This document shows, piece after piece, positions 1 to 59,091 of a stretch of DNA of 64,000 bases (within the stretch, counting starts at the first letter, position 1; every line of letters begins with the position of its first letter). Origin of the DNA: a virus. The stretch lies in the IMG/VR virus record IMGVR_UViG_3300046820_000495, positions 11,203 to 75,202 of that record. The stretch is one strand, 5' to 3'. The notes beneath the pieces are model-generated. The model saw only the letters and a list, made by a program, of their open reading frames with translations. It searched no databases and was not told where the DNA came from. Made by a program: the position numbers and the translations under genes.

Positions 1-762
1 GCGGTAACGTGTACCAGCAAGTAATTTGCCCATATCTAAACTGTAAACAGTTTTCTTCTTTAACACTTCTGGTACTTCATTGCGAATAATAGCTACAGCA
101 AGTCCTTCTACAATAGCTGTTTTACCTACACCAGGTTCACCAACCATGATAGCATTGTTTTTCTTTTTACGAGTAAGTGTCTGTGCAAGTCGGAACACTT
201 CTTTCTCACGACCAATCAAGGGATCGATCAGTTGCTTTTCAGCACTCTTATTCAAGTTAGTAGTATACTTGCTGAGTACTTTTTCACTATCACGTTTCTT
301 AGCGACCTTGCTTTCCTTGCTACGGCCATCTTTTAGTTTACCAACATAGGTAATGATAGCATCTTTGGTAACACCATTCTTGGCAAGGAAGAAGTTGGCA
401 TGGCTATTCTTTTCACTTGCAATACTGATCAGCAAGTCTAGTGGCTCCATGTGTCCACGGCCAGTAAAGATAGCCTGTGTGTATGCACGATTAAAGCATC
501 GTTCTAAGGTAGCTGTTTTGCGTGGTTTGGTTACACCCTCAACACGGATGTCTTCTTGGTCCCGTAACCACATATCAATTTCATCACGCAGGCCCATTAC
601 ATCTACTTGTAATTCACCAAGGATGTCTTTAATTTCTTCTTCTTCTAGCATGACACGTAGTATGTGCTCTAGTGTAACATACTCATGTTCACGGTTCAAT
701 GCATCTTGGAATGCACGAGCAATAACTTCATTAATGCGTCCGTTGTTTTCTTCTTGATTCAT
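1..762 (-). CDS. clpA: ATP-dependent Clp protease ATPase ClpA (5' part; runs off window start)
   Basis: Not in ORF track. Manual translation from ATG at 762: [14 protein letters not shown]...HEYVTLEH (Clp N-domain)...IDPLIGRE...[24 protein letters not shown] (Walker A)...[13 protein letters not shown]. Confidence 0.93.
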
Positions 763-30333: not shown

Positions 30334-30723
30334 CTATGCTAACTTTTCATATTCCAAACTAACACCCTCTGAGTAGTAGCCGTTTGACTCACCTAACCAG
30401 CGAATGTCAACCCAACCTTTAAAGGTTGCAAATTTGTAAAAGGTCCAGGTGTATGACTCACTGCCTTCAAAGCCATCCACTTCACCGCCAACTGCTTCTT
30501 CTGCTACCAAGATAGGAGTGCCTACCAAGTCTTGCAAGTCGCCAACAATGTCGTTTACTTCTACAGATTCACAACAATCTTGGAAGTGCATAAATGTAAA
30601 AGTTTCTTTGTCGGTTGCAAAGACAATTTCACGTGAGCCTACTTCACCAGTAACACTGGTAAAGACTTTGCCAATCATGTCTTTCAATCCAACTGTCATG
30701 TTCAATGTTTTTTCGTAAGTCAT
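30334..30723 (-). CDS. Hypothetical phage protein
   Basis: HFQDCCESV...SYTWTFY...RWLGESNGYYSE. Confidence 0.75.
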   Translation of the reverse strand: MTYEKTLNMTVGLKDMIGKVFTSVTGEVGSREIVFATDKETFTFMHFQDCCESVEVNDIVGDLQDLVGTPILVAEEAVGGEVDGFEGSESYTWTFYKFATFKGWVDIRWLGESNGYYSEGVSLEYEKLA

Positions 30724-30745
30724 TTTTATTCCTTTCATTTATAAT

Positions 30746-30946
30746 AGGAGGGAACCATGTGGATCTCATTCTGCTGGGTTTGCGAAGCCCAGTCACCACG
30801 GTCATTACTGCCAGATACTTCCGTCAACCATTTGGATCTATTGCTAGTCCTCAGTCTTCATGCGTTGTAAGATTGCGCCAAACGCCTTGGTGCTCCTCTC
30901 TTACGGTCCGCCTAACGGATCTGGTAACCCTTTTATTTCTTGCTAT
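30746..30946 (-). ncRNA. Putative structured non-coding RNA or long leader (~200 nt)
   Basis: No credible ORF; multiple complementary helices; follows TTGACA-17-TATAAT (30953-30981). Confidence 0.5.
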
Positions 30947-30952
30947 GTATCT

Positions 30953-31010
30953 ATTATAGTACTTCTAGGGCCACTTGTCAACCATTTTGTTGTTGTATTT
31001 TTACAACAAC
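30953..31010 (-). promoter_or_regulatory. Consensus sigma70 promoter with upstream palindrome GTTGTTGTA-TTTT-TACAACAAC
   Basis: TTGACA-17-TATAAT; palindrome at 30989-31010. Confidence 0.85.
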
Positions 31011-31015
31011 TTTGC

Positions 31016-31300
31016 TTACTTTTTAGGCAGATCTTTTGCTAGCTCAAACCACCGTGTAGCTTGTTTATAGTTAAAATTTGGGTGCCTAAACATATAATCC
31101 CGTTTGCGCTCTGCTATCTCTAAAGCATCTAGCATACGCATTTTATCATTAAATGGCAATGACATTAACACTTTATTCATATCTGTAATGTCTAACATAT
31201 ACTCCACCCATTTTTCTGTGGCTTTTATTTTGTAGAAACTTACTTGTCCTTTTTTATTATTGGCGCTTGTATATTTGCTTATAAAGTTTTTAGCTTGCAT
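31016..31300 (-). CDS. Hypothetical protein
   Basis: SD AGGAG; own promoter. Confidence 0.7.
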   Translation of the reverse strand: MQAKNFISKYTSANNKKGQVSFYKIKATEKWVEYMLDITDMNKVLMSLPFNDKMRMLDALEIAERKRDYMFRHPNFNYKQATRWFELAKDLPKK

Positions 31301-31320: not shown

Positions 31321-31375
31321 ATTATAACAGAGATTGGACCGCTTGTCAAGTATGCTGTGTTGCAAAAATACAACA
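31321..31375 (-). promoter_or_regulatory. Consensus sigma70 promoter with TGTTG-N8-CAACA palindrome
   Basis: TTGACA-17-TATAAT; palindrome at 31358-31375. Confidence 0.85.
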
Positions 31376-46103: not shown

Positions 46104-46182
46104 TGGTGGGCCGTCTTGGAGTCGAACCAAGCACCAATGGATTATGAGTCCACTGCTCTAACCAAGCATGAGCTAACGGCCC
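46104..46182 (-). tRNA. tRNA with CAU anticodon, most likely tRNA-Ile2 (lysidine)
   Basis: Cloverleaf GGGCCGT...CTCATAA...TTCGACT...ACGGCCCACCA; G1-C72, C4-G69, C5-G68; encoded CCA; promoter TTGACA-17-TACAAT at 46192-46220. Confidence 0.88.
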
Positions 46183-47071: not shown

Positions 47072-48529
47072 TCAGTGAACGGGTATATTATGTAATGTTT
47101 GGAATCTTACAGCGTCTGCCCAGGAGTTGACCAAGGGTTCGCCTTTGATATTTAGGCTGGTGTTCATTAGGATAGGGCAACCTGTACGACGATTCCATTC
47201 TTCCAGGATACTACGGAACACAGGATTATCTTGACGTGTTACTGTTTGAACTCTACTGGAATTGTCCACATGGCACACACCCGGCAACATGTCTGGTAGT
47301 CTGCAACGTGCCACAAACTGCATATAAGGACTAGACTTAACAGGCATATCAAAGTATGTGTCTGCAGATTCTGCTAATACAGCAGGCGCAAATGGCCTAA
47401 ACTGTTCACGCCGCTTAATAGAGTTCATTCTAGGTTTTGCATCCGACCCTCTAGGATCGCAAAGTAAACTTCGGTTGCCAAGTGCCCTTGGACCAAACTC
47501 GGCTCTGCCGTTAGCCAATGCCACAACACGGCCTGCTTCAAGGTCATCCACAATTGCATTAACATCTACGTCCCTTTCAATATTTGTGCCCAAGTAAGGG
47601 CCTTCCCACGTTAAATGGCGTTGGGTGTGTGCGGCCACTGCTCCTAAAGCACTTCCAGCATCGCCTGGATTGGGCATAATCCATACTTCTTTAAATAAAC
47701 CGCTACGAGCAATAACGCTGTTGGCTACACAATTAAGCGCAACGCCTCCCATGAATACCAAGTTGTCACTGACAGTATTAGAGCGCATCACTAATATTGT
47801 TTCTAGTAGGTATTCTTCAATTAATTTCTGTACACTAGCGGCAATGTCAAATTTACTAGCAGTGGGATCCTTAGGTTCCCACCATAAGCAACCACGATGT
47901 AAATTATGACGTAATTTAAAGTCAGGTGGCGCCCATTTAGTAAAGAATGTTTCGCGTAATTCTTCTAAGTATTTGGGTGTGCCGTGTGCGGCCATGCCCA
48001 TTAAAATATATTCTTCTTCGTTGGGCTTTAGGCCCAACCACTGTGTCATTGCTGTGTAAAATAATCCCATGCTGTCTGGGTATTTTTTAGCCCAGCGGCG
48101 TGTCATTTGATCTTTACGAGCTTCCCATATGCTTACACTATCCCATTCGCCAATTGCATCTACTACTAATATTGACGCATCTTCAAATGGACTTGTATAA
48201 TATCCTGCTGCCGCATGGCTTTCATGATGCCCTACATAATCAACAGGCAGGGAATTTAATCCTACTAAACGTAATTGATCACGCGGACTTACAATCCAAG
48301 GACGCTGTCCGGAAAATAGTCTGCGTAAATTCTTTTGAAAAGGCTTTTCAAACCAAACAATTTGTGTAGGTTCACCATATTGTCGCATTTCTTTAACCAT
48401 GTCAGCATCTAACATAGTATCATTCTTTACTCTACTGTAGCGTTCACTGTGTGCCGCCCAAACAATTCGATCCCCATCGATCAGTGCCATGCTGGCATCG
48501 TGGTTCTGCGATGTAATACCTAGTATCAT
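47072..48529 (-). CDS. Carbamoyltransferase (NodU/CmcH/TobZ family)
   Basis: HDAS, ERYSRVKND, HHESHAA, GGVALNCVAN, EFGPRALGNRS, FRPFAP, NTSLN. Confidence 0.94.
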   Translation of the reverse strand: MILGITSQNHDASMALIDGDRIVWAAHSERYSRVKNDTMLDADMVKEMRQYGEPTQIVWFEKPFQKNLRRLFSGQRPWIVSPRDQLRLVGLNSLPVDYVGHHESHAAAGYYTSPFEDASILVVDAIGEWDSVSIWEARKDQMTRRWAKKYPDSMGLFYTAMTQWLGLKPNEEEYILMGMAAHGTPKYLEELRETFFTKWAPPDFKLRHNLHRGCLWWEPKDPTASKFDIAASVQKLIEEYLLETILVMRSNTVSDNLVFMGGVALNCVANSVIARSGLFKEVWIMPNPGDAGSALGAVAAHTQRHLTWEGPYLGTNIERDVDVNAIVDDLEAGRVVALANGRAEFGPRALGNRSLLCDPRGSDAKPRMNSIKRREQFRPFAPAVLAESADTYFDMPVKSSPYMQFVARCRLPDMLPGVCHVDNSSRVQTVTRQDNPVFRSILEEWNRRTGCPILMNTSLNIKGEPLVNSWADAVRFQTLHNIPVH

Positions 48530-48530
48530 A

Positions 48531-48644
48531 TCAATAGATAAATGGATCTCGTTTGCGTAATTCTTCCATACGCTTTTTAATTCTGCGTTTTTCTTTATAA
48601 TTGCGGTACGGGGCTAATAGTAAATCAAGTAATTTCTTAAACAT
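48531..48644 (-). CDS. 37-aa basic peptide directly upstream of the carbamoyltransferase (not in ORF track)
   Basis: MFKKLLDLLLAPYRNYKEKRRIKKRMEELRKRDPFIY; SD AGGAG; TAAGTA upstream. Confidence 0.7.
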   Translation of the reverse strand: MFKKLLDLLLAPYRNYKEKRRIKKRMEELRKRDPFIY

Positions 48645-48664
48645 GGCTGTCTCCTGTCAATTAC

Positions 48665-50734
48665 TTATTGCCACGTACCAGTATCGTTGTATCTGTGAGT
48701 AAAAGAAAAGTCCCAAGTCTTACGTTCTTCTAATAATGCTATTTCTTCTGAATATTCTTCATTGGTAAACTGGCTTTCTCCACCACTGCCAGGCAATGCT
48801 AGCTTACGAGCACGTCGAGCCGCCACAGAGTCAGCACGACTAAACTCACTGTAGTGCCAAGCATCGTCACGTTGAACAAAATCGTAGTAGAAATCCGCTA
48901 TCCAATGTCCATTTGTGTCAATGTCAAACTTGAATACACCTGTAAAGTTACAGCCCATCCTATCACCAAACTCTCTATTACTGAATTCTGGGGTAATAGT
49001 CATGTCTAGTGTATAAGCACCGCGACTGCGCCACATTAGTCGTAGCAATGGCCATATTTCATTTACAAGACTATCAGCAAAATCACTGATTCCAGGCTTG
49101 ATAATGTTGTAGTCAAACACTTCGTACTCTACTTCACGTACCACGCTGTTATCAAAGTTTAATTGGCATATATCATTGACACCACTGCGATTGGTAAAGT
49201 CAATATTTTCCTCTGTTACAATATTATTAAGGAATATATTAAATGTAGTCAGGCGAATTAGTCTATGCACCTTGCTGTTAGCCGAGTCCTTGGTAATCCA
49301 ATTACCTTCAAAATAGCTTTTAGCAATATTATACTTGTCAGTGTTCTGCGCTAAGATAGTGTCAGGCGGAATAGTAAAACCGTGTCCGGCGCTTACGTTG
49401 GTTAAATTGTTGTTGCGGTTACGCCAAATAAAGGTCATTGACTCATAAAAGTCCTGTGGAGTTTCTGTAGGGAAACCAATAATCCAATTTGAAAACGCTT
49501 CTACCCCTACCTCCTTACCGTGACGCAGATTCTGTTCCATTTCCTCTACAGTGACACCCTTGTCCATGTCGGCCAAGACCCGGGTACTACCCGATTCAAT
49601 TCCGTAGCTTAGGCTAATACAGCCTGATTCCGCCAGGTCTTTGTAGTATTCCAAGTCCATACGTCCGTCACAGCGAGCATAACCTGTCCATGCAATTTTC
49701 ATTTCACGGGCAATTACGCCTTTACAGAACGCACGTAGCTCATTTAAGTTCCCATTTACCAAGCTGTCCAAGAACCAAATAACATTGACGCCACGATTAA
49801 AATACAAGTCTGCTACTTCTTCTAAGATGTTACGTGCCATGCGTCCGCGATACTTCCAAAAGTGTGTTTCGCTACAGAATACACATTTAGCTGTACAGCC
49901 GCGGCTTAGTTCTGCGTTAACACCGTTAGGAAATCCATAGTCTAGTGGGTCAAAATAGCTATAATCCGGACTAGGCAGTTGATCTAAGTCTAGTCGCTGA
50001 CCATCTGTTTGACGTAACCAGCGTTGCTTACCATCAAACTGGCCTGTTTCTATTTCTTCTAATGCTTCTAGTAGTAGCTGTTCGCCTTCCCCTGTGATAA
50101 TATAATCATATTCAGATTCAGGTTGCCAGTAACTTTGATGACATTGTGGGCCACCTACCATTACTAATATATGCGGATAGCGGCGCTTTAATTCTTTTAC
50201 CATCCACTTGGTAGGTTCTTGATTACAGTAGTAAAGACTAAAGCCCACCACAGTGGGATTCATTTCCCCAATTTTATCTAAATATTGATTTAAAAAAGGC
50301 TCTACGTATTTGTGCAAATATTCGTAATAATGATTGTCCATCCAACGCCATTCGCGTGAACCATCCCAAGGGTTAAAGTCCAAGCCTGGCCAGTTACCGT
50401 GGTCTTTGTGTGCTTTGGCGTTTAAATCAAATGCGTGTGTAGCGTAACCAGCGTCACGAGTAATAGCGGCTAATCGTGCTATGTTGTAAGGAGGAAAGTT
50501 ATGTGCCCACTCTGGCAGCAACATAAACACAATGCTGGTAGCTCGTGTAGCAGGTGTTATCGCCACTTGCGTTAAATTACTCTGTGGTTTAGCACGAGCA
50601 AAGGGTTGCAGGGCTTCTAGAACCTTACGGTGTTTGGCATCATAGTCTTCTTCTGTTTTAGCTACAGGCTTGGTTTCTTTTAAGGCGTAAATCTTTTGCC
50701 AGCCGTATACACTATTTTCTTTGGGTTTAGTCAT
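48665..50734 (-). CDS. B12-binding radical SAM enzyme
   Basis: VGFS...VGGP...GEGE B12-binding domain; SRGCTAKCVFC; GIESGS; GFPTET. Confidence 0.9.
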   Translation of the reverse strand: MTKPKENSVYGWQKIYALKETKPVAKTEEDYDAKHRKVLEALQPFARAKPQSNLTQVAITPATRATSIVFMLLPEWAHNFPPYNIARLAAITRDAGYATHAFDLNAKAHKDHGNWPGLDFNPWDGSREWRWMDNHYYEYLHKYVEPFLNQYLDKIGEMNPTVVGFSLYYCNQEPTKWMVKELKRRYPHILVMVGGPQCHQSYWQPESEYDYIITGEGEQLLLEALEEIETGQFDGKQRWLRQTDGQRLDLDQLPSPDYSYFDPLDYGFPNGVNAELSRGCTAKCVFCSETHFWKYRGRMARNILEEVADLYFNRGVNVIWFLDSLVNGNLNELRAFCKGVIAREMKIAWTGYARCDGRMDLEYYKDLAESGCISLSYGIESGSTRVLADMDKGVTVEEMEQNLRHGKEVGVEAFSNWIIGFPTETPQDFYESMTFIWRNRNNNLTNVSAGHGFTIPPDTILAQNTDKYNIAKSYFEGNWITKDSANSKVHRLIRLTTFNIFLNNIVTEENIDFTNRSGVNDICQLNFDNSVVREVEYEVFDYNIIKPGISDFADSLVNEIWPLLRLMWRSRGAYTLDMTITPEFSNREFGDRMGCNFTGVFKFDIDTNGHWIADFYYDFVQRDDAWHYSEFSRADSVAARRARKLALPGSGGESQFTNEEYSEEIALLEERKTWDFSFTHRYNDTGTWQ

Positions 50735-51890
50735 CTTGCCATTCTGCTAAAAAATCAGGCCATAATTCATTAAATGAATACTTTTTATCATTTAAGTATT
50801 TTACTTCTGTCGCGTGTGTCCAGTCAGTGAATTCTAGTTTCTTTATTAACCATTCATCACCTGTGCGACCAATGGTTGGGATAAGCTGGCTTCTAATGTT
50901 TTCTAGTGCTGACATATCATAGCCGCTTGAGCTGTATTTGGCTATACATAGATCCAACTCTGCTAAAGCTTTGCGCTTAAAGTTGTCTGGCAATTTGAAT
51001 ACGTTTAAGCTACGAATGTTTTGTATAGCGCACCAGTATACTTCATTGAAATAACCTTCTCCGATAACGAAGTCATAGTACTCGCATAAGTTAAATGCTG
51101 AGTATGTACAGTATAAGGGATGTGCGTTAATAGTTTTGACACCTTGTGCATTAAGATATCGCAAGTTAGACACAAAGGTTGTCCATTCTGCACCGTGACG
51201 TACATATTCAAATCTCTTGTCCACTGTGTCAAAGCTGATGCCCCACTGTGCGTTTGGGTTGGCTATCAACTTGGGTGCTATTGTGTTATTGGGCAGGTCA
51301 ATGCTTAGATTGCTTAGTATGTAATAGTTCTTTGTAGGCAGTAAATCAATTAGCCGATGATTTTGCTTTTGTAGCAAAGGCTCGCCGCCTAGTAGATTAA
51401 TTGTTTCAATGCTGTCAACAGAGTTGATATTTTCAGCTATTAGCGTAAACAAGCTGTCTTCTGCTTCGGCCTTGTTGGCATTGATCTTAATACCTTTGAG
51501 TACACTCCATTTACTGCTGAAATATTCATAGCAGTAATTGCAGGCCAGATTACACAAGTTGCTCCAGCGTAGATCCAGCTTTTGAAGTTCAAATGTTTCT
51601 TTTGTTGCTGATTCAAACTCTTCAAATTTTTGAACACTATTGGTATCAACTCGTTCACTTCTGGCCCCCATTGCTTCTAGCTTTTGGCATTGGGCACATT
51701 GTGGATGCCAGCGTTCTTCTACAATGGCCTGACGTATGCCTTGTGCTGTAGGACCTTGTAGTATTTCTTGTATGCTTTGCTTGTTGATATCGCCTATGTC
51801 CATTTCAGCACTACAGCAGGTTTTAACCCCGCCGTCTGCGCCTAAGAAAATAGTATTAAATGGGTAAGCGCAAAAGGTTTCTTTATTCAT
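50727..51890 (-). CDS. Radical SAM protein with N-terminal Twitch-like domain
   Basis: FCAYPF...GGVKTCC...CAQC precedes CNLACNYC; GGEP. Confidence 0.88.
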   Translation of the reverse strand: MNKETFCAYPFNTIFLGADGGVKTCCSAEMDIGDINKQSIQEILQGPTAQGIRQAIVEERWHPQCAQCQKLEAMGARSERVDTNSVQKFEEFESATKETFELQKLDLRWSNLCNLACNYCYEYFSSKWSVLKGIKINANKAEAEDSLFTLIAENINSVDSIETINLLGGEPLLQKQNHRLIDLLPTKNYYILSNLSIDLPNNTIAPKLIANPNAQWGISFDTVDKRFEYVRHGAEWTTFVSNLRYLNAQGVKTINAHPLYCTYSAFNLCEYYDFVIGEGYFNEVYWCAIQNIRSLNVFKLPDNFKRKALAELDLCIAKYSSSGYDMSALENIRSQLIPTIGRTGDEWLIKKLEFTDWTHATEVKYLNDKKYSFNELWPDFLAEWQDD

Positions 51891-53655
51891 TGTTTAATAA
51901 TTTATTCATTAATGCATCAGCAAGTTGCTCGTGGTATTCCACGTGTGCATGATAAAATCCATGAACTTGTGAATCGTTTCGCCAGTCAATGAGTTTGCTC
52001 AAGCACATGTCATGATCAACAATGCTTCTTAACTTGTGAGTATTGGTTGCCATACACATAAAACGTGGATTCAGCTTTTTATCCTGGACAAAACTGGCAT
52101 AGTCATCCATGGTGCAATGTAGATACTGTACTAATAATCTGCCGCCAAGTTCCTGACTCAGCAGGTCCAGATAGCGCAAAGAAGCATAGTAGTTAAAAAA
52201 TAAAAAGTATTCGTCCCCAATATGTTCAACAAATTCATTGTGGAAACGCTCGCTAGGCCAGTATTTAGGATGACCAATGATTGGGGTAGCAGGCCATGGC
52301 CATCCAAATCGTTCTTTTTTGTCAAAGTACATCCAGCGTTCCATGCTAGTTGCGCCAACTAGTATTAGATCATATTCAGTTAGTACACCTGAGGACAAAT
52401 CTTGTTCAATCATGTAAATCATTCCTTGCATACCGCTGCCAGGTATGCCACGATTTAAAATAGGAACATCAAGTCGTTTGGCAAGTTGTCCGGCCCAACT
52501 GAGTTTGGACTGAGTATCTAATACTGTTTTATCGCCCAAGAATGGATAATCAGTGTAAAAGTCATTGGCGCCAGTGGCTGAATATTTTCGTTTTATCTTA
52601 TCAACTTCTCCACGTGACGCGGGCGTTGGCCAAAACAAATGATCAGCCAATTCACTGCCTGCTGTGTGACTGCATCCGTACGCTACAACTCTATTAAATT
52701 TAATAGTTTGACCGTTCCGAGTGATAGACTTTAACGGAAGCATTTCCCAGTCTGAATGAAGTATTTCAATAACCTCAGGTCGCAATTGATACAATGAATT
52801 TTTAAAAGTCTGATTGAAGAATTCTTTCTTCCAATCACCTATTACATTGAGTCCTTTAAGAAACTCACCAAGGACTTCGGCACTTTCAGGCGTTATATGG
52901 AAACGATGTACTGTGACCATAAAGCCGTTTTCAGCTACTGCTCTGTCTAATTCATTTTTTAATTGGGCAGGTGTTAATCTTTCAGCCAGATTAAATCCAC
53001 CAAACTGACCAACTGCCCATTTATCCTTGGACTCTACCCAGAGTTCTCTACTTTGTGCATATATCCAATACAAGCTTGCTTCACTGCTGTTTAGTACAGG
53101 ACGAGTCAATATGTCATAGTTCATTGAACTCAAGTGTTCTAATAAACTCCTAACAAAGGTGTTGCGCCAAATAAAGGGTGTAATTGGAAACTGTTCTCTA
53201 ACCGAGTCAACATCAATTCCCAGTATTCTTGCAGATCCAATTTGATCTGTACTTGGCGCATGATCTTTGTCAAATACCACTACCTTTAAGTTGTTGTCAA
53301 TAAAGAAGTCGCCAAGAGACAAATTTCTAATTAGAAAGTTCTTGCTATCTAGTACTACGCTGTAGTCAGCTTGGCTTTCACTTGCGGCCCATAACTTTAA
53401 TATTTGTTGTCTATGCCATCCATCAACTGCAACTAATTTAGGTCCTGTTTTAACATTCAGTGTCCAGCCTGGCATATTTGATTTAATATGATCGTTGATC
53501 CAATCAATTACACGCTGATAAATGTCTTCATCTTCGACCACTATGGTCCAATTCTTTTCACCTTGCCAGAATTTTTCCAAGCTGTGTGCATGATAATATA
53601 GCGTGGCTAGGTCACCACTGTAAGTTACTGTAATTAATTCTGAGGTATATCGCAT
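51883..53655 (-). CDS. Fusion of a glycosyltransferase-like (DUF6492-like) N-domain and an SGNH/GDSL-like C-domain
   Basis: GWHRQQILKL...VLDSKN; YGCSHTAG...SWAGQLA...NRGIPGSG...H. Confidence 0.6.
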   Translation of the reverse strand: MRYTSELITVTYSGDLATLYYHAHSLEKFWQGEKNWTIVVEDEDIYQRVIDWINDHIKSNMPGWTLNVKTGPKLVAVDGWHRQQILKLWAASESQADYSVVLDSKNFLIRNLSLGDFFIDNNLKVVVFDKDHAPSTDQIGSARILGIDVDSVREQFPITPFIWRNTFVRSLLEHLSSMNYDILTRPVLNSSEASLYWIYAQSRELWVESKDKWAVGQFGGFNLAERLTPAQLKNELDRAVAENGFMVTVHRFHITPESAEVLGEFLKGLNVIGDWKKEFFNQTFKNSLYQLRPEVIEILHSDWEMLPLKSITRNGQTIKFNRVVAYGCSHTAGSELADHLFWPTPASRGEVDKIKRKYSATGANDFYTDYPFLGDKTVLDTQSKLSWAGQLAKRLDVPILNRGIPGSGMQGMIYMIEQDLSSGVLTEYDLILVGATSMERWMYFDKKERFGWPWPATPIIGHPKYWPSERFHNEFVEHIGDEYFLFFNYYASLRYLDLLSQELGGRLLVQYLHCTMDDYASFVQDKKLNPRFMCMATNTHKLRSIVDHDMCLSKLIDWRNDSQVHGFYHAHVEYHEQLADALMNKLLNNE

Positions 53656-54917
53656 GAAGAGTCCACGGGCTGATTCTTTGACGATCTGTCATTGATTTCG
53701 TGTGTAAAGATTCTATCTATACTGCTGTACTGTCCACATGTGTCTGCACAATAACTTAAACGTCCATTTTCAACTTGATCTATTTTCCATGTATCTGCAA
53801 ACACACGATCTAAATGTTGTGCGCTTAGAATTTCTGTTAGCGAATATGTATCCAAGCTAAAGTGTTCCCAACCGTAATCATTCATATGCTTGTGAAGCTG
53901 TAAGCTACGAGTGTCTGTGTAGACACCATTCAAATGTGTGCCAATGTAACAGCAAGGCATCACGCGGCCAAAGTTGTCTACAAAGATTTCTTTACCGCCT
54001 GTCCAAGTACGACTTTTACATTTAATTTCACAACTGTTATACTTGGTGTTGTCTTCTGCAAAGATTCTATGTGTGTATACTTCTGCTACTTGTTGTTGGA
54101 ACGCTTTGGATATTTGCTTTGTTTCTTTTAACTTACGATAGTCATCTACGTTAAAAGGATAAAATGTTACTTCAGCTTCGCCTTTGGGTTCTGCTAGGTT
54201 ACGGTTCTTTGCTTGCGTTGGCGCTTCGATAATGTAATCTAACTTGCCATCTTTGTCTAGTACAGGCATTTTAGTCAGATACTCGCCGTTGTCAACGCCT
54301 AGTGCTTTCTTGGGCACAAACTCAGCAAACTTCATTTGTTCTGCTAGTGCTTGTGCCGCTTCAATTTGATGCTCGTTATGGCGGAAGATTAAGTAGTCCC
54401 AGTTAGCTGAGCCACCTGCGTTAATGAATGCTTTGACGTTTTCCATAAGCACACTCCAGTTAACATTACGGCGATACAAATGATTGGTATCTTCTAAGCC
54501 GTCGATGCTAAATGTAATTTGCCAGTAACTGGGATTATGGTCGCGGGGGAATTGGGCAAACAGCGCACCCATTTTGGCCCACCAATCGGGCTTTCGCATA
54601 CCACCATTGGTGTTCATGCGTACTGCTGTGGTCTTGCTTACTGAGGCAATGTAATCGCAAATTTCGTAAGTGTCCTTTGCTGTACCAGGGTCTCCGTGTA
54701 CGCCACAAAATAAGATCAGCTTGCAACGCTGTATAACTTCTGGTGGGAAATACTGCTTGAACTTGTCCAAGGTAATTTGACCAATTTCTAAGTCTGGTCT
54801 AGCATGTGGACTGTTGTTGTGAAAGCGTACACACATGGGGCAGGCGGCATTGCAACCATTGGTAAGCTCAATGTGCATTTGCTCTATTTCTTCTAAGGTC
54901 CAGAACGCTTTATCCAT
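53634..54917 (-). CDS. Radical SAM protein with C-terminal Twitch/SPASM-like domain
   Basis: CNAACPMC, HGDP, TNGG, SIDG; C...GRVMPCC...C...C. Confidence 0.88.
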   Translation of the reverse strand: MDKAFWTLEEIEQMHIELTNGCNAACPMCVRFHNNSPHARPDLEIGQITLDKFKQYFPPEVIQRCKLILFCGVHGDPGTAKDTYEICDYIASVSKTTAVRMNTNGGMRKPDWWAKMGALFAQFPRDHNPSYWQITFSIDGLEDTNHLYRRNVNWSVLMENVKAFINAGGSANWDYLIFRHNEHQIEAAQALAEQMKFAEFVPKKALGVDNGEYLTKMPVLDKDGKLDYIIEAPTQAKNRNLAEPKGEAEVTFYPFNVDDYRKLKETKQISKAFQQQVAEVYTHRIFAEDNTKYNSCEIKCKSRTWTGGKEIFVDNFGRVMPCCYIGTHLNGVYTDTRSLQLHKHMNDYGWEHFSLDTYSLTEILSAQHLDRVFADTWKIDQVENGRLSYCADTCGQYSSIDRIFTHEINDRSSKNQPVDSSCDIPQN

Positions 54918-56142
54918 TATGTGCCTTTACTACTTGTCCATAAGCTTCAAATGTTGCAAAGAAGTCTTGTTCTCTGTAAACATCGTGTGTCTTAATTGTA
55001 CTTAAGAATTTGGCCCATTCTTCTTCTGAACAAGGAGTACCATTTTCAATAAAGCCAATGATGCCGGGCAATTGCCACCAGGCATGTTCATAGTTCTTGG
55101 GAATATTGTGCAGTCTATCAAGCACAGCTTCTTTGATGTCAGTGGGCAAACTGCCCATGTTAAAGTGTGCAGGGCGATGTACTAGGTTTAAGTATAAACC
55201 AAAGTCTGTAAAGTTATCATAGTAAGCATCTAGTGTTTCAGGCAAGTTGTAGATGTTAATACTGCTTAATGTAATACACCAGCTTAGGCTTAGGTTGCCG
55301 TGCTGTTTAGCAAATGCCGATGCCTTCTTCATGTTGTCTACTGCTTCTGTCCATACAGCTGGATACCGCATGTATTCAAATTGTTCGCCTGTGCCATCAA
55401 TACTAAAGCTAAGGTTAACATGCTTGAAGTTCTTCCAAACTTCTGTTTCTTCTGGCCATGTTGTACCGTTGGTGTTGTAGTGTAACTCAATGTCTTTGGC
55501 ATAACCGTTGTCTACACAAAGCTTTAGCACTTCCCACATTTTCTTACTAAGGAATGGCTCGCCACCATAAAAGTCAAACTGTCTAATGGTGCTTAGGTTA
55601 TTAGCCAGGTCATCCCAAAACGGACTGTCTTCATCATATGTTTGATGATACTTCTTCATGTTAATAGAGTAATCTTTATAGCTTACACGATTAGCATGAT
55701 TCAAGTCATAATCCTCTTTCATCCATAAACTACTAATAGTCGGATGGCATGTACGGCATTTGATGTTGCAGGTGTTACCCAAGTTAAGTTCAAACTTGGC
55801 AAGACCTGTAAAAGGCTCTGCACCTTCGTACTCTATAGCATGAAAGTACTTTTCATTGTCACGCAGGCGTTTGCTCTTACGTCCGCCATCTTCTTCTTGC
55901 CAGCACTGATTACACGCACGATCGCGTACACCTGCGGCCAAATTGGCTTTGATACCCTGGGCAATAGGATTGTTAAAGTTTTCTTCAATTGTTTTACTAC
56001 CTAAGAACCAATCTTGTTTGCCACCCATGTAGTTGTATGACTCATCAATCATACAGCACATTTTACTAGAGCCGTCATTGTTACCGCTCATGCCATGTAG
56101 TGCATTCACGCACCAGCTACGTTCATTCTGTTGGTTCATCAT
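54910..56142 (-). CDS. Radical SAM protein with N-terminal Twitch-like domain
   Basis: WC...KMCC...CNQC; CNIKCRTC; GGEP; TNG; SIDG. Confidence 0.88.
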   Translation of the reverse strand: MMNQQNERSWCVNALHGMSGNNDGSSKMCCMIDESYNYMGGKQDWFLGSKTIEENFNNPIAQGIKANLAAGVRDRACNQCWQEEDGGRKSKRLRDNEKYFHAIEYEGAEPFTGLAKFELNLGNTCNIKCRTCHPTISSLWMKEDYDLNHANRVSYKDYSINMKKYHQTYDEDSPFWDDLANNLSTIRQFDFYGGEPFLSKKMWEVLKLCVDNGYAKDIELHYNTNGTTWPEETEVWKNFKHVNLSFSIDGTGEQFEYMRYPAVWTEAVDNMKKASAFAKQHGNLSLSWCITLSSINIYNLPETLDAYYDNFTDFGLYLNLVHRPAHFNMGSLPTDIKEAVLDRLHNIPKNYEHAWWQLPGIIGFIENGTPCSEEEWAKFLSTIKTHDVYREQDFFATFEAYGQVVKAHNG

Positions 56143-57493
56143 AGGTTAGATATATCTGCTTACATAGTTTGTAAAATTCCTCGTACTCGGGAAATAGTTC
56201 AATTAGGTTAGTACCTAGTCTGTTGTCGTTTTCGTTAAAGAAGCTGAAAAAGTCTCTGCGGCCTGCACGAATATGCTCGGGCGTTAATTCATGTTCTTTC
56301 ATGTAGCCAGTCACACGCTTGAACTTTTCATACTCAACAGCCGTAAAGAATTCAGGGTGACTCTTGATAAATTCCAAGTTGCCATCCATGTAAGGAATAA
56401 AGTCTGGTGTTAAAATCTTAATCATCCAGTGCGGTGGTTCCTTCAAGTAAGGCGTATCAAAAGATACTGCATCCTTGCCGAACTCAGTGCGCCATTCAAT
56501 TACTTTTTCCAGTAGCGCACGGAATGTTGTAACGCATAGCACATTGAATGTACACATTAGGTTAATTGTAGCACCAGTTTTCATAACTGCTTTCATGTTG
56601 CGTTCCCAGTGGGCACAATCCATACCTGTACGCATATACTCTGCTTGTGCGCCCCAACCTTCAATTGACGTAAAGAAGCTGAACTTACGAATCTTCTTTT
56701 GTGCCAACAAGCTTTCTACACGCTCGATTAACGAGTCTACCTTGGCAAAACTTACGCCCAAGTTACTGTTTAGTGTAATTTCCAACTGTGGTGCTGGTTC
56801 TGTTTCTAATAGATCAAAGAACTGCATGGCACCCTTGTTCATCAAGGGCTCGCCACCTGTGATGCGAAGTGTATGTAAATCGTGCTTGAGACTTGGCCAC
56901 CATTTCCAAAACGCTTCAATGTACGGGTTCTCATCTTTAGGACCATAGTAAGTGCCTGTTTTCAAGAACTCAATACCATACTGATTGTATGTTAAGTCGT
57001 GGTTACCAAACTTCTTAATTTCTTCCATCCATGCTGTGCTGGCTTGTGGACTGCAATAGCCACAGCGATAGTTACAGTTATTACCAAAGCTGACTTCTAA
57101 GTAACGTGGGTTAATAGGTGCGTCCCAAGGCAACTCTGCCAGCTTTTCAATGTGTGGTGCGGCAAAGTCTGAACTACTGTGAATCATACGATCGCTAATA
57201 TGCTCGCCCGGCAAGTCTTCAATGTTCCAGCAGTAGTAACATTCATCTGGACGGCCGCCTTCTAACATGGTCTTGCGCTGTTCCTTTTTCCACTTGGTGT
57301 TGTGTAATGCGCTGGGATCAGCGGCAATTTCATCTAGAGGAATATGATGAGGACGTGGATGATAGCAACTGTGATTATCACCTGTGTGCAGATACAAGGT
57401 TTGGTGCAACCATTTCATTGCACAAAAACCTGGCCCTACTTTGTTTAATCTGTCTCTTACACTTTTAATGTGTACTACTCTATGATCTGACAT
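56123..57493 (-). CDS. Radical SAM protein with N-terminal Twitch-like domain (SCYH variant)
   Basis: FCAMKW...HSCYHP...ECYYCW; CNYRCGYC; TGGEP. Confidence 0.88.
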   Translation of the reverse strand: MSDHRVVHIKSVRDRLNKVGPGFCAMKWLHQTLYLHTGDNHSCYHPRPHHIPLDEIAADPSALHNTKWKKEQRKTMLEGGRPDECYYCWNIEDLPGEHISDRMIHSSSDFAAPHIEKLAELPWDAPINPRYLEVSFGNNCNYRCGYCSPQASTAWMEEIKKFGNHDLTYNQYGIEFLKTGTYYGPKDENPYIEAFWKWWPSLKHDLHTLRITGGEPLMNKGAMQFFDLLETEPAPQLEITLNSNLGVSFAKVDSLIERVESLLAQKKIRKFSFFTSIEGWGAQAEYMRTGMDCAHWERNMKAVMKTGATINLMCTFNVLCVTTFRALLEKVIEWRTEFGKDAVSFDTPYLKEPPHWMIKILTPDFIPYMDGNLEFIKSHPEFFTAVEYEKFKRVTGYMKEHELTPEHIRAGRRDFFSFFNENDNRLGTNLIELFPEYEEFYKLCKQIYLTYDEPTE

Positions 57494-57501
57494 TGTTATC
57501 C

Positions 57502-59091
57502 TTATCTTAGTTTATATATCTTACTTGCTCTGTCGCTGAGGTTAACTAACTCCGTCAACTCCGGAAATGTTTCTTTAAAGTCTGTCCCGCGGCGTCGATC
57601 ATGTTCTGTATAGAAAGCATGAAAGTTTGCTCTAGCAGTCAACGCTTCTTCTGGCGTGTATGGATTACTTGCCCAATCCAATAATCTACGCACTTTATCT
57701 ACTTCATAGTCCTTGAAACCTCTAAAAGGATTTTCCTTAGTTTCGAGGTTAGCTTCCATGAATTCAATGCTTTCACGCAGTACTTCTAAGTCACCAGTTG
57801 GAAGTATTTTTAAACTTAACCAATCTGGATCCATCAACATGGGCACATCAAACCAAACAAGCTGTCGTGTAGTGTTAAACTCTTGGCGTAGGGCCAAGAT
57901 GTTTTTAACATACTCCAGCCATCCTGGTATACTTAGTGCATTGAAAGTAACAATGAAAGTTAAACTGTGCTTGGTGCCTTTACGCAAGTACTCTCTAACG
58001 TTCTTGTACATAACATCAAAGTCTAGTCCATTGCGAATATACTCTGCTTGCTTGCCCCATGAGTCCAGGCTACAGTAAAGCATAAAGTGATCAATGGCGT
58101 TGCGTTCTTCTAATACTGTCAAGGACTTGATAAACTTCTTCCATTGTCCTTTAGGAGGGCAACAATTACTTGTAATGCTTAGATGTAGTTCATCACCTTT
58201 GGGATGTTCTGCTACATAATCAAATACCTTAAACGTATTCTTATCCATAAGCGGTTCGCCGCCAGTCATGCGGAATGTTTGTAAGCCTGTGTATACTGTA
58301 GGGAACCATTCCCAAAACGCTGTTAGATAAGGATTGTCTGGTCCGTTATCTGGCATGCCTTGTTGTACCATCCAACGGATATCATTGTGTGTACGCTTGT
58401 CAGCTAAGACATATGGCCCGTACTTTTCTGATTCCTTCATCCACTCTGTACTTAGATGAGGACTGCAATATGCACACTTAAAATTACAAGCTTGGTTAAA
58501 GTTTACTTCTACATAGCGTGGGGTGGCATTACCTGTGTGCAAGTCTACTGCAAGGTCTTCTAGCATACCAGGACGATATACATCCTTGCTACGATAAGCA
58601 CGATCGCTTAACTGTTCGCCAGAGTCTTCAATGTCCCAACAGAAGTTGCACTCTTCGGGCCGCTCACCTTTAAGCATCTTTAGTCGCTGTTCCTTCTTGT
58701 GCTTGGTGTTGTGTATAGCACTAGAGTCTGCTGTAATTTCTTCTAAGGGTATGTGGTGTGCAGGAGGATGATAGCACGAATGTGTCTTGCCTGTAGGGAT
58801 ATGGATACTAACATTATACCATTTGGCCAAGCACATACTTGGACTAATTTCATTTACAATTTCAAACACCTTGCGGGCTTCGTGAGCGTAAATGCTTTTA
58901 ATTTCTGTTTTCTTACCTGTAGCTAAATTGCCGTCGCCGCGAACATTATGAACCAATTTGAGTTTGTCTTTGTCTGACTGACTCATAAAGCTGTACAGTT
59001 CGGGTTCTTTAATGGCTAGAATTTTTGCACGAATATTGTCTTCGCTAAAGGGCTTTGGTAAGTTTTTTGTAATTTTGTCAAAGATATTCAT
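57502..59091 (-). CDS. Radical SAM protein with N-terminal Twitch-like domain (SCYH variant), paralog of the previous gene
   Basis: MCLAKW...HSCYHP...ECNFCW; CNFKCAYC; TGGEP; extended -10 TGnTATAAT 8 nt before ATG. Confidence 0.88.
   Translation of the reverse strand: MNIFDKITKNLPKPFSEDNIRAKILAIKEPELYSFMSQSDKDKLKLVHNVRGDGNLATGKKTEIKSIYAHEARKVFEIVNEISPSMCLAKWYNVSIHIPTGKTHSCYHPPAHHIPLEEITADSSAIHNTKHKKEQRLKMLKGERPEECNFCWDIEDSGEQLSDRAYRSKDVYRPGMLEDLAVDLHTGNATPRYVEVNFNQACNFKCAYCSPHLSTEWMKESEKYGPYVLADKRTHNDIRWMVQQGMPDNGPDNPYLTAFWEWFPTVYTGLQTFRMTGGEPLMDKNTFKVFDYVAEHPKGDELHLSITSNCCPPKGQWKKFIKSLTVLEERNAIDHFMLYCSLDSWGKQAEYIRNGLDFDVMYKNVREYLRKGTKHSLTFIVTFNALSIPGWLEYVKNILALRQEFNTTRQLVWFDVPMLMDPDWLSLKILPTGDLEVLRESIEFMEANLETKENPFRGFKDYEVDKVRRLLDWASNPYTPEEALTARANFHAFYTEHDRRRGTDFKETFPELTELVNLSDRASKIYKLR

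Follow-up and report, generated by a model that had tools for sequence, protein, structure and literature searches.

A tightly folded non-coding RNA of about 200 nucleotides, conserved among uncultured phages and often encoded beside tRNA genes

The window analyzed here, a stretch of 64,000 nucleotides, belongs to an IMG/VR record of 75 kb that is estimated to be 23% complete. On its minus strand, the start of a DUF7448 gene is separated from the nearest promoter by about 200–205 nt without a credible ORF, as the initial annotation had pointed out, and this interval is occupied by an RNA that is present as a single copy within the 75-kb record. The locus comprises the following features.

30992..31007, no strand assigned: 16-bp palindrome, operator-like, exact match, about 10–11 nt upstream of the -35 box
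30953..30981, minus strand: sigma70-type promoter, with -35 TTGACA at 30981-30976, a 17-nt spacer and -10 TATAAT at 30958-30953
30741..30939, minus strand: conserved RNA core, a full-length (1-197) match to covariance model R1 with 114.1 bits and E 6e-32
30334..30723, minus strand: DUF7448 gene (Pfam PF24240, E 5e-23), with the Shine-Dalgarno (SD) sequence AAGGA at 30734-30730

The promoter had been described as a perfect sigma70 site, and a consensus scan of the minus strand bore this out, with TTGACA-17-TATAAT at 30981..30953 matching 12 of 12 consensus positions; transcription would start near 30946 (minus). The DUF7448 gene begins at either 30723 or 30738 (minus). The other perfect promoter in the window also has a copy of the palindrome, with one mismatch, at 31359-31374, immediately ahead of its -35 box; two matches in the window compare with 0.09 expected. 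The same exact 16-mer is present in 56 related loci, and in several of them it precedes the promoters of RNA/tRNA operons. The palindrome probably serves as the operator of a regulator encoded by the phage or the host.

Homologues of the RNA were collected by several routes. Relatives reached via two flanking proteins included three near-identical copies and one copy of 60–70% identity, the latter lying downstream, not upstream, of DUF7448. A strict 3'-domain pattern, made of two blocks common to the protein-anchored copies, matched 60 viral loci, and an independent pattern that used 5'-domain blocks only found at least 119. In 49 of 50 new loci, a covariance model built from 36 sequences and a hand-drawn structure gave a full-length match of 39–181 bits, and it also matched three divergent members (L032, L058 and L076) in protein-anchored loci. 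The family set used below consists of 79 distinct homologues, all from uncultured phage contigs. The carriers are giant freshwater phages: exactly one copy is present in each of five genomes that are 92–100% complete and 320–356 kb long. A search of 185,579 bacterial and archaeal genomes, made with the strict pattern only and hence silent on divergent bacterial relatives, returned three matches (L156-L158) that neither the profile nor the covariance model recognizes and that we regard as chance.

The elements of the fold, in window coordinates and in the order in which they follow one another along the RNA, are listed here.

30928..30937, minus strand: terminal stem P0, 5' strand, partner 30741-30752 (helix 1, double changes at 6 of 8 pairs)
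30925..30927, minus strand: junction UUA between P0 and P1, at least 97% conserved (n = 79)
30919..30924, minus strand: P1, 5' strand, partner 30811-30816 (helices 2 and 3, double changes at 5 of 6 pairs)
30913..30918, minus strand: P2, 5' strand, partner 30821-30826 (helix 4, 100% paired, double changes at 2 of 4 pairs)
30862..30911, minus strand: P3 arm, proximal GCG/CGC and distal 30904-30899 with 30872-30867 (helices 5 and 6)
30890-30878, minus strand: hairpin P3b inside the P3 arm, loop type G-N-C-G
30857..30861, minus strand: junction AUGAA between P3 and P4, with A, G, A and A at least 97% conserved
30834..30850, minus strand: P4 hairpin with a GCAA tetraloop (helix 7, double changes at 4 of 4 pairs)
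30804..30810, minus strand: junction CAGUAAU between P1 and P5, GUAAU invariant
30753..30803, minus strand: P5 arm, 30803-30796 with 30762-30753, enclosing P5b (helices 8–11, double changes at 12 of 14 pairs)
30792-30774, minus strand: hairpin P5b, inside and enclosed by P5

The fold supported by covariation has two three-way junctions, stacked on each other, and a terminal stem that closes them. The path runs from P0 through UUA into P1 and P2, enters the inner junction, returns through P2' and, across an A-rich bulge, through P1', and then passes by way of (C)AGUAAU into P5 with P5b before closing at P0'. The inner junction is made up of UAG, the P3 arm with P3b, AUGAA(R), P4 and a strand of 4–7 nt, and P2 overlaps its invariant UAG (30914-30912). 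All seven helices proposed in the initial annotation (CCAGAU/AUCUGG, CCGUUA/UGACGG, GUAAGA/UCUUAC, CCAA/UUGG, the GCAA-capped hairpin, GACC-GUGG/CCAC-AUGGUU and CUGGG/CCCAG) are present where it had placed them, and each corresponds to a family helix with compensating changes. Within P1, the five-pair helix has 100% of its cells paired and the single pair 90.9%; double changes affect 6 of 7 pairs in helix 5 and 5 of 5 in helix 6 of the P3 arm. P4 is GNRA-capped and differs in length among family members. P0 pairs at 6 of 8 positions in the window and is lengthened to about 22 bp in the copies that lie in tRNA arrays, where it ends a few bases before the tRNA.

Conservation in the 79 sequences reaches at least 97% for the junction letters GG-UUA-CC, CC..UAG, AUGAA and GUAAU, a figure that is partly due to the pattern-based retrieval of these sequences. 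The same 5'-domain letters nevertheless recur in the set retrieved by 3'-domain blocks only and in three protein-anchored members, and the CAGUAAU motif is also present in the divergent L032, L058 and L076, which were reached via neighboring proteins, without a DNA pattern. In divergent members the 3' domain is swapped for other architectures.

Covariation was computed on 40 sequences and then on 79. In the alignment of 79, standard pairs fill 92.7% of paired cells against 70.5% after shuffling, and none of 500 shuffles reached the observed value. The homologues keep the helices through double changes, 40 of 48 pairs being altered on both sides (shuffled mean 34.8). The covariation score was 0.53, compared with 0.17 for shuffled data and no more than 0.10 when the partners were slid by 1–3 columns. 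The window sequence by itself folds no better than its shuffles (minimum free energy of -51.7 kcal/mol, shuffled mean of -51.2, z = -0.12), so the support for the structure comes entirely from the comparison with relatives. The longest open stretch in six frames had a median of 51 amino acids across the 79 homologues and of 56 in shuffled sequence. The window carries an antisense ORF of 84 amino acids at 30705-30959, and the open antisense frame differs between homologues; the variable hairpins differ in length by steps other than multiples of three. The interval is thus a genuine gene for a tightly folded non-coding RNA of about 200 bases.

A search of Rfam 15 (4227 models) gave no match in 30600-31100 up to E = 10, in keeping with the initial reading of the element as neither a tRNA nor a common riboswitch, and the sole gathering-level match in the window was a tRNA at 46107-46182. 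Applied to ten related loci, Rfam returned tRNA and tmRNA only, the flanks matched no family, and ARAGORN called the flanking tRNAs and tmRNAs in these loci and never the RNA itself. A family member gave no blastn match at word size 11 in 50,697 GenBank phage records and none in E. coli genomes; when 1.1 kb around the RNA was compared with GenBank phages, the DUF7448 ORF alone was matched. 6S RNA is rod-shaped and extended, and its central bubble imitates an open promoter. The present RNA shares with it a length of about 200 nt and a strong promoter, but it is multi-branched, with two three-way junctions in place of a rod with a central bubble, and the search against all Rfam families was empty, so the suggestion that it is loosely 6S-like is not supported. 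Y RNA/YrlA likewise has no Rfam match here, and the Ro60/TROVE domain PF05731, for which control genomes gave matches, is absent from the five 92–100% complete phage genomes, a scope that leaves a host-encoded Ro60 possible. No model match supports membership in GOLLD, ROOL or manA, and sequence comparison gives no support for homology to T4 rnaC or rnaD, blastn finding no match in GenBank phages. We found no paper that names or describes the family. Fragments of it may be contained in a 2023 catalogue of 8,495 unnamed IMG/VR RNA candidates of 29–151 nt (Fremin et al. 2023, PMC10690425). The occurrence of structured RNAs near phage tRNAs is a general theme already known; the present family is large, uncatalogued and new in both fold and sequence.

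The genomic surroundings of the relatives connect the RNA with tRNA genes, its usual place being the start or the interior of a tRNA operon. A tRNA on the same strand starts within 40 nt downstream of the model match in 33 of the 78 non-window members and lies within 250 nt in 45 of 78; those within 40 nt are for Asp (12), Glu (10), Tyr (4), Leu (3), Ser (2), Ile (1) and Lys (1). Related arrays have 15–30 tRNA genes around the RNA. Four members lie 4–5 nt behind a tRNA-Glu, and in three (L170, L188 and L076) the next tRNA follows 12–14 nt downstream. An RNA wedged in this way between closely spaced tRNAs would have its ends set by tRNA processing. One phage carries two diverged copies in tandem, the upstream one having altered P3b and P5b loops. 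The elements 3' of the RNA vary, and include tRNAs of seven kinds, a fresh promoter and unrelated small ORFs.

L113:8160-8424, L099:85-331, L125:4952-5198, L108:4790-4909, L144:519-640 (minus strand) and others: rRNA-operon-like leaders
L144:89-287 and 315-518, minus strand: tandem diverged copies in one phage, then a tRNA

In the array copies, the gap between the previous tRNA and the RNA measures about 245–256 nt and contains two sigma70-like promoters at a distance of about 98 nt. A GAAA-loop hairpin comes after each of them, and a boxA-like GTTCTTTAA motif after the second. This motif lies 43–57 nt ahead of the RNA, or 108 nt in L076, where a tRNA-Glu intervenes. Ribosomal RNA operons have tandem P1-P2 promoters, a boxB-boxA leader and RNase III processing stems. 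The RNA of the relatives occupies the position of 16S rRNA in such an operon, after tandem promoters and a boxA-like signal, with a long stem of leader-trailer type and tRNAs behind it; it differs in that no SSU, LSU or 5S model and no E. coli sequence is matched, and in that the window copy has no boxA leader.

Stand-alone copies, among them that of the window, are located among small early genes and have their own consensus promoter, often with a new consensus promoter within about 40 nt downstream. No protein is a constant neighbor among the relatives, the stand-alone copies being flanked by small early ORFs of several clusters. With respect to DUF7448, the order is reversed in L035 and L133, where the RNA lies downstream of the gene, and in L032 the gene is found just past a block of Glu, Asp, Ser and Cys tRNAs. 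Given the order in L032, the adjacency of RNA and DUF7448 in the window looks like a tRNA-less version of the same neighborhood rather than a regulatory pairing, and DUF7448 is best described as a neighbor by synteny.

The window stretch was found in sequencing runs from freshwater, lake and estuary metagenomes and in six metatranscriptomes. Assembled contigs from four metatranscriptome studies cover 30495-30969 and all run on into the DUF7448 ORF, and three of them (in X4, X5 and X10) reach upstream of the predicted start. The region is thus present in RNA libraries, in the form of assembled contigs that carry no information on ends, strand or level; they are compatible with co-transcription with DUF7448, and read-through or DNA carry-over is possible.

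We consider it somewhat more probable than otherwise (about 0.55) that the family is a discrete, stable non-coding RNA of about 190–205 nt that is excised by host RNases and acts in trans on some partner. The initial annotation had offered an early-expressed sRNA, a ribozyme or a cis-regulator, and what stands of this is a conserved structured RNA behind a host-type early promoter. According to the model, host RNA polymerase would make the RNA early, the window copy from its own consensus sigma70 promoter and the copies of most relatives as part of a unit resembling an rRNA operon, in which tandem promoters and a boxB/boxA leader precede the RNA and tRNA-Asp, -Glu or -Tyr follows it. On the 3' side, we infer that release from the precursor would be by host RNase P, at the 5' end of the following tRNA; after a preceding tRNA, an RNase Z-type cut would serve, and the long terminal stem could be cut by RNase III. 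The freed RNA might then serve, in its folded form, as a scaffold or a decoy and bind some macromolecule of the host or the phage that is connected with tRNA or translation. A discrete stable RNA would account for the covarying stem that abuts tRNA 5' ends, for the wedged and the stand-alone copies, for the tandem duplication and for the occurrence of one copy per genome, and the rrn-like leader with the steady company of tRNA-Asp, -Glu and -Tyr suggests that the RNA belongs to a translation-related RNA program of the phage. For the window copy, the weak P0 (6 of 8 pairs) and the lack of a downstream tRNA count against the release model.

The RNA is promoter-proximal in most contexts, a position that would fit a cis role too. 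We therefore weighed the possibility that it is a cis-acting leader, whether a processive antiterminator (like HK022 put or EAR), a helper of tRNA folding or processing, or a ligand-sensing riboswitch. Besides being usually first behind the promoters and the boxA leader, the RNA of the window forms the 5' leader of the DUF7448 mRNA, with contigs from RNA libraries spanning both, and the invariance of the junction letters would be in keeping with a binding pocket. However, neither a terminator-like site before the next gene nor any other expression platform is evident, and the SD sequence at 30734-30730 lies outside every conserved helix and is not sequestered. The class of the downstream element is inconsistent among relatives, ranging over the seven kinds of tRNA, a new promoter and varied, unrelated small ORFs; in the four phages in which the RNA follows tRNA-Glu it does not head the unit; and the covarying terminal stem, set against the 5' end of a tRNA, suggests that the RNA is cut out as a molecule of its own. 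With a usually promoter-proximal place but neither an expression platform nor a constant downstream gene, we consider a cis role unlikely, and the cis-regulator proposed in the initial annotation is not supported.

A more ambitious form of the trans-acting reading, which we regard as speculative and rather doubtful, is that the RNA is the product of a new type of stable RNA operon that would use the host machinery for rRNA transcription and processing. The product would then target translation, either acting as a decoy, with a ribosomal protein or one that binds tRNA as its target, or assembling itself into a particle that holds the Asp, Glu and Tyr tRNAs. How the large tRNA arrays of giant phages contribute to host takeover is debated, and such an operon, if real, would amount to an RNA-based takeover of translation by giant phages.

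By analogy with ROOL, GOLLD and the manA motif, the RNA could also form an RNA-only homo-oligomer, a cage or ring held by loop-loop contacts, perhaps with tRNAs enclosed or tethered. Nanocages are formed by ROOL and GOLLD, which are encoded by phages or prophages, often close to tRNA islands (PMC12286853), and RNAs of less than 200 nt, such as manA, can form 60-mers (bioRxiv 10.64898/2026.07.01.735769). The present RNA has two exposed hairpin loops, P3b and P5b, whose conserved letters (G-N-C-G and A-G-A-C-G-K-U) are partly complementary, and in the first 36 sequences a kissing contact between them showed three covarying states. Across the 79 sequences, however, this complementarity is only partly kept, the middle pair fitting in 37 sequences with the common loop type (A-U in 20, C-G in 17) and failing in 24 (A.G in 15, C.U in 7, A.A in 2), and there is no sequence relation to ROOL, GOLLD or manA. 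We consider oligomer formation improbable.

For a ribozyme, which would either cleave itself from its precursor or act as a miniature catalyst of tRNA processing, speak the complex fold with its invariant unpaired junction letters and the 15–30 surrounding tRNA genes, which need processing. Yet Rfam, including its ribozyme and RNase P RNA families, gave no match even at E = 10, and a search by eye of the conserved single strands for a pseudoknot like P4 of RNase P RNA found none that are complementary. The RNase P protein (PF00825) is absent from the five complete genomes, identity with RNase P RNA is not supported, and host RNase P and RNase Z would suffice to produce the ends. We consider a catalytic role very improbable. 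That the spacer contains no RNA gene at all, but a fold arisen by chance or, on one or the other strand, a gene for a small protein, might be argued from the single-sequence z score and the 84-residue antisense ORF, but is excluded by the double changes in 79 homologues, by hairpin-length differences that would shift a frame and by open stretches that are unconserved and no longer than in shuffles.

The closest analogues of the RNA by context are T4 rnaC and rnaD, GOLLD and ROOL. The T4 genes, which form part of the tRNA cluster of that phage, encode the stable RNAs called species 1 (about 140 nt) and species 2 (about 120 nt); these RNAs are co-transcribed with the tRNAs and released by host tRNA-processing enzymes, and their function is not established. 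The likeness lies in being small stable non-tRNA RNAs among phage tRNA genes, whereas the present RNA is larger, has a two-junction fold, also occurs as a stand-alone early gene and shows no sequence similarity to them. GOLLD and ROOL, "ornate" RNAs with Rfam families and cryo-EM structures (PMC12286853), are likewise structured RNAs of phages or prophages that covary heavily, often adjoin tRNA islands and have no partner or function assigned to them; they differ in their size of 500–800 nt or more and in their distinct folds, and the Rfam models of both are without a match here. The family adds to the small number of structured RNAs from phage tRNA islands that lack an explanation, and its smaller size may ease work on it. 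With a fold of about 200 nt that is well determined, and with over 100 natural variants, it is a ready target for structure determination and partner pull-downs. An RNA of complex fold that occurs once per genome, beside tRNA arrays and with an rRNA-operon-like leader, is likely to be part of the takeover program.

Several further elements were seen in the related phages, two of which are located as follows.

L096:6156-6248, L123:12450-12543 (minus strand), L150:13363-13456, L154:7047-7139 (minus strand), L162:12187-12279 and 13 more: "element X", a second conserved RNA of about 90 nt
L099:6233-6631, L104:3059-3603 (minus strand), L141:11345-11811 and L200:9579-9995: permuted two-piece tmRNA genes in phage tRNA regions

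In some phages, element X is placed after the promoter and before the main RNA; in others it is as much as several kb distant. Its predicted fold has 25 pairs, 5 of them with double changes, and Rfam up to E = 10 gave nothing for it except two junk lncRNA matches. At L032:1871-1968, an extra spacer of about 90 nt separates the RNA from tRNA-Glu and has an AU-rich closing stem like that of the RNA itself, which suggests that these tRNA arrays hold other small folded RNAs. Two array tRNA calls are odd, namely an 87-nt "tRNA-Asp" with anticodon ATC at L168:7053-7139 and a call with a two-letter anticodon at L187:12431-12517; both may be tRNA-like RNAs and not working tRNAs. Three of the permuted tmRNAs encode the tag ANDEQFALAA, and the Rfam matches of the permuted tmRNAs are of beta- or alpha-proteobacterial type, which hints at a host group among the alpha- or beta-proteobacteria. 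Within the window itself, an unbroken run of eight large genes at 47072-59091 (minus strand) encodes a carbamoyltransferase, a B12-binding radical SAM enzyme, a SPASM radical SAM enzyme and a DUF6492 protein, with four further ORFs that have radical SAM matches, three of these below the Pfam curated cut-off; the run looks like a large modification or biosynthesis cluster.
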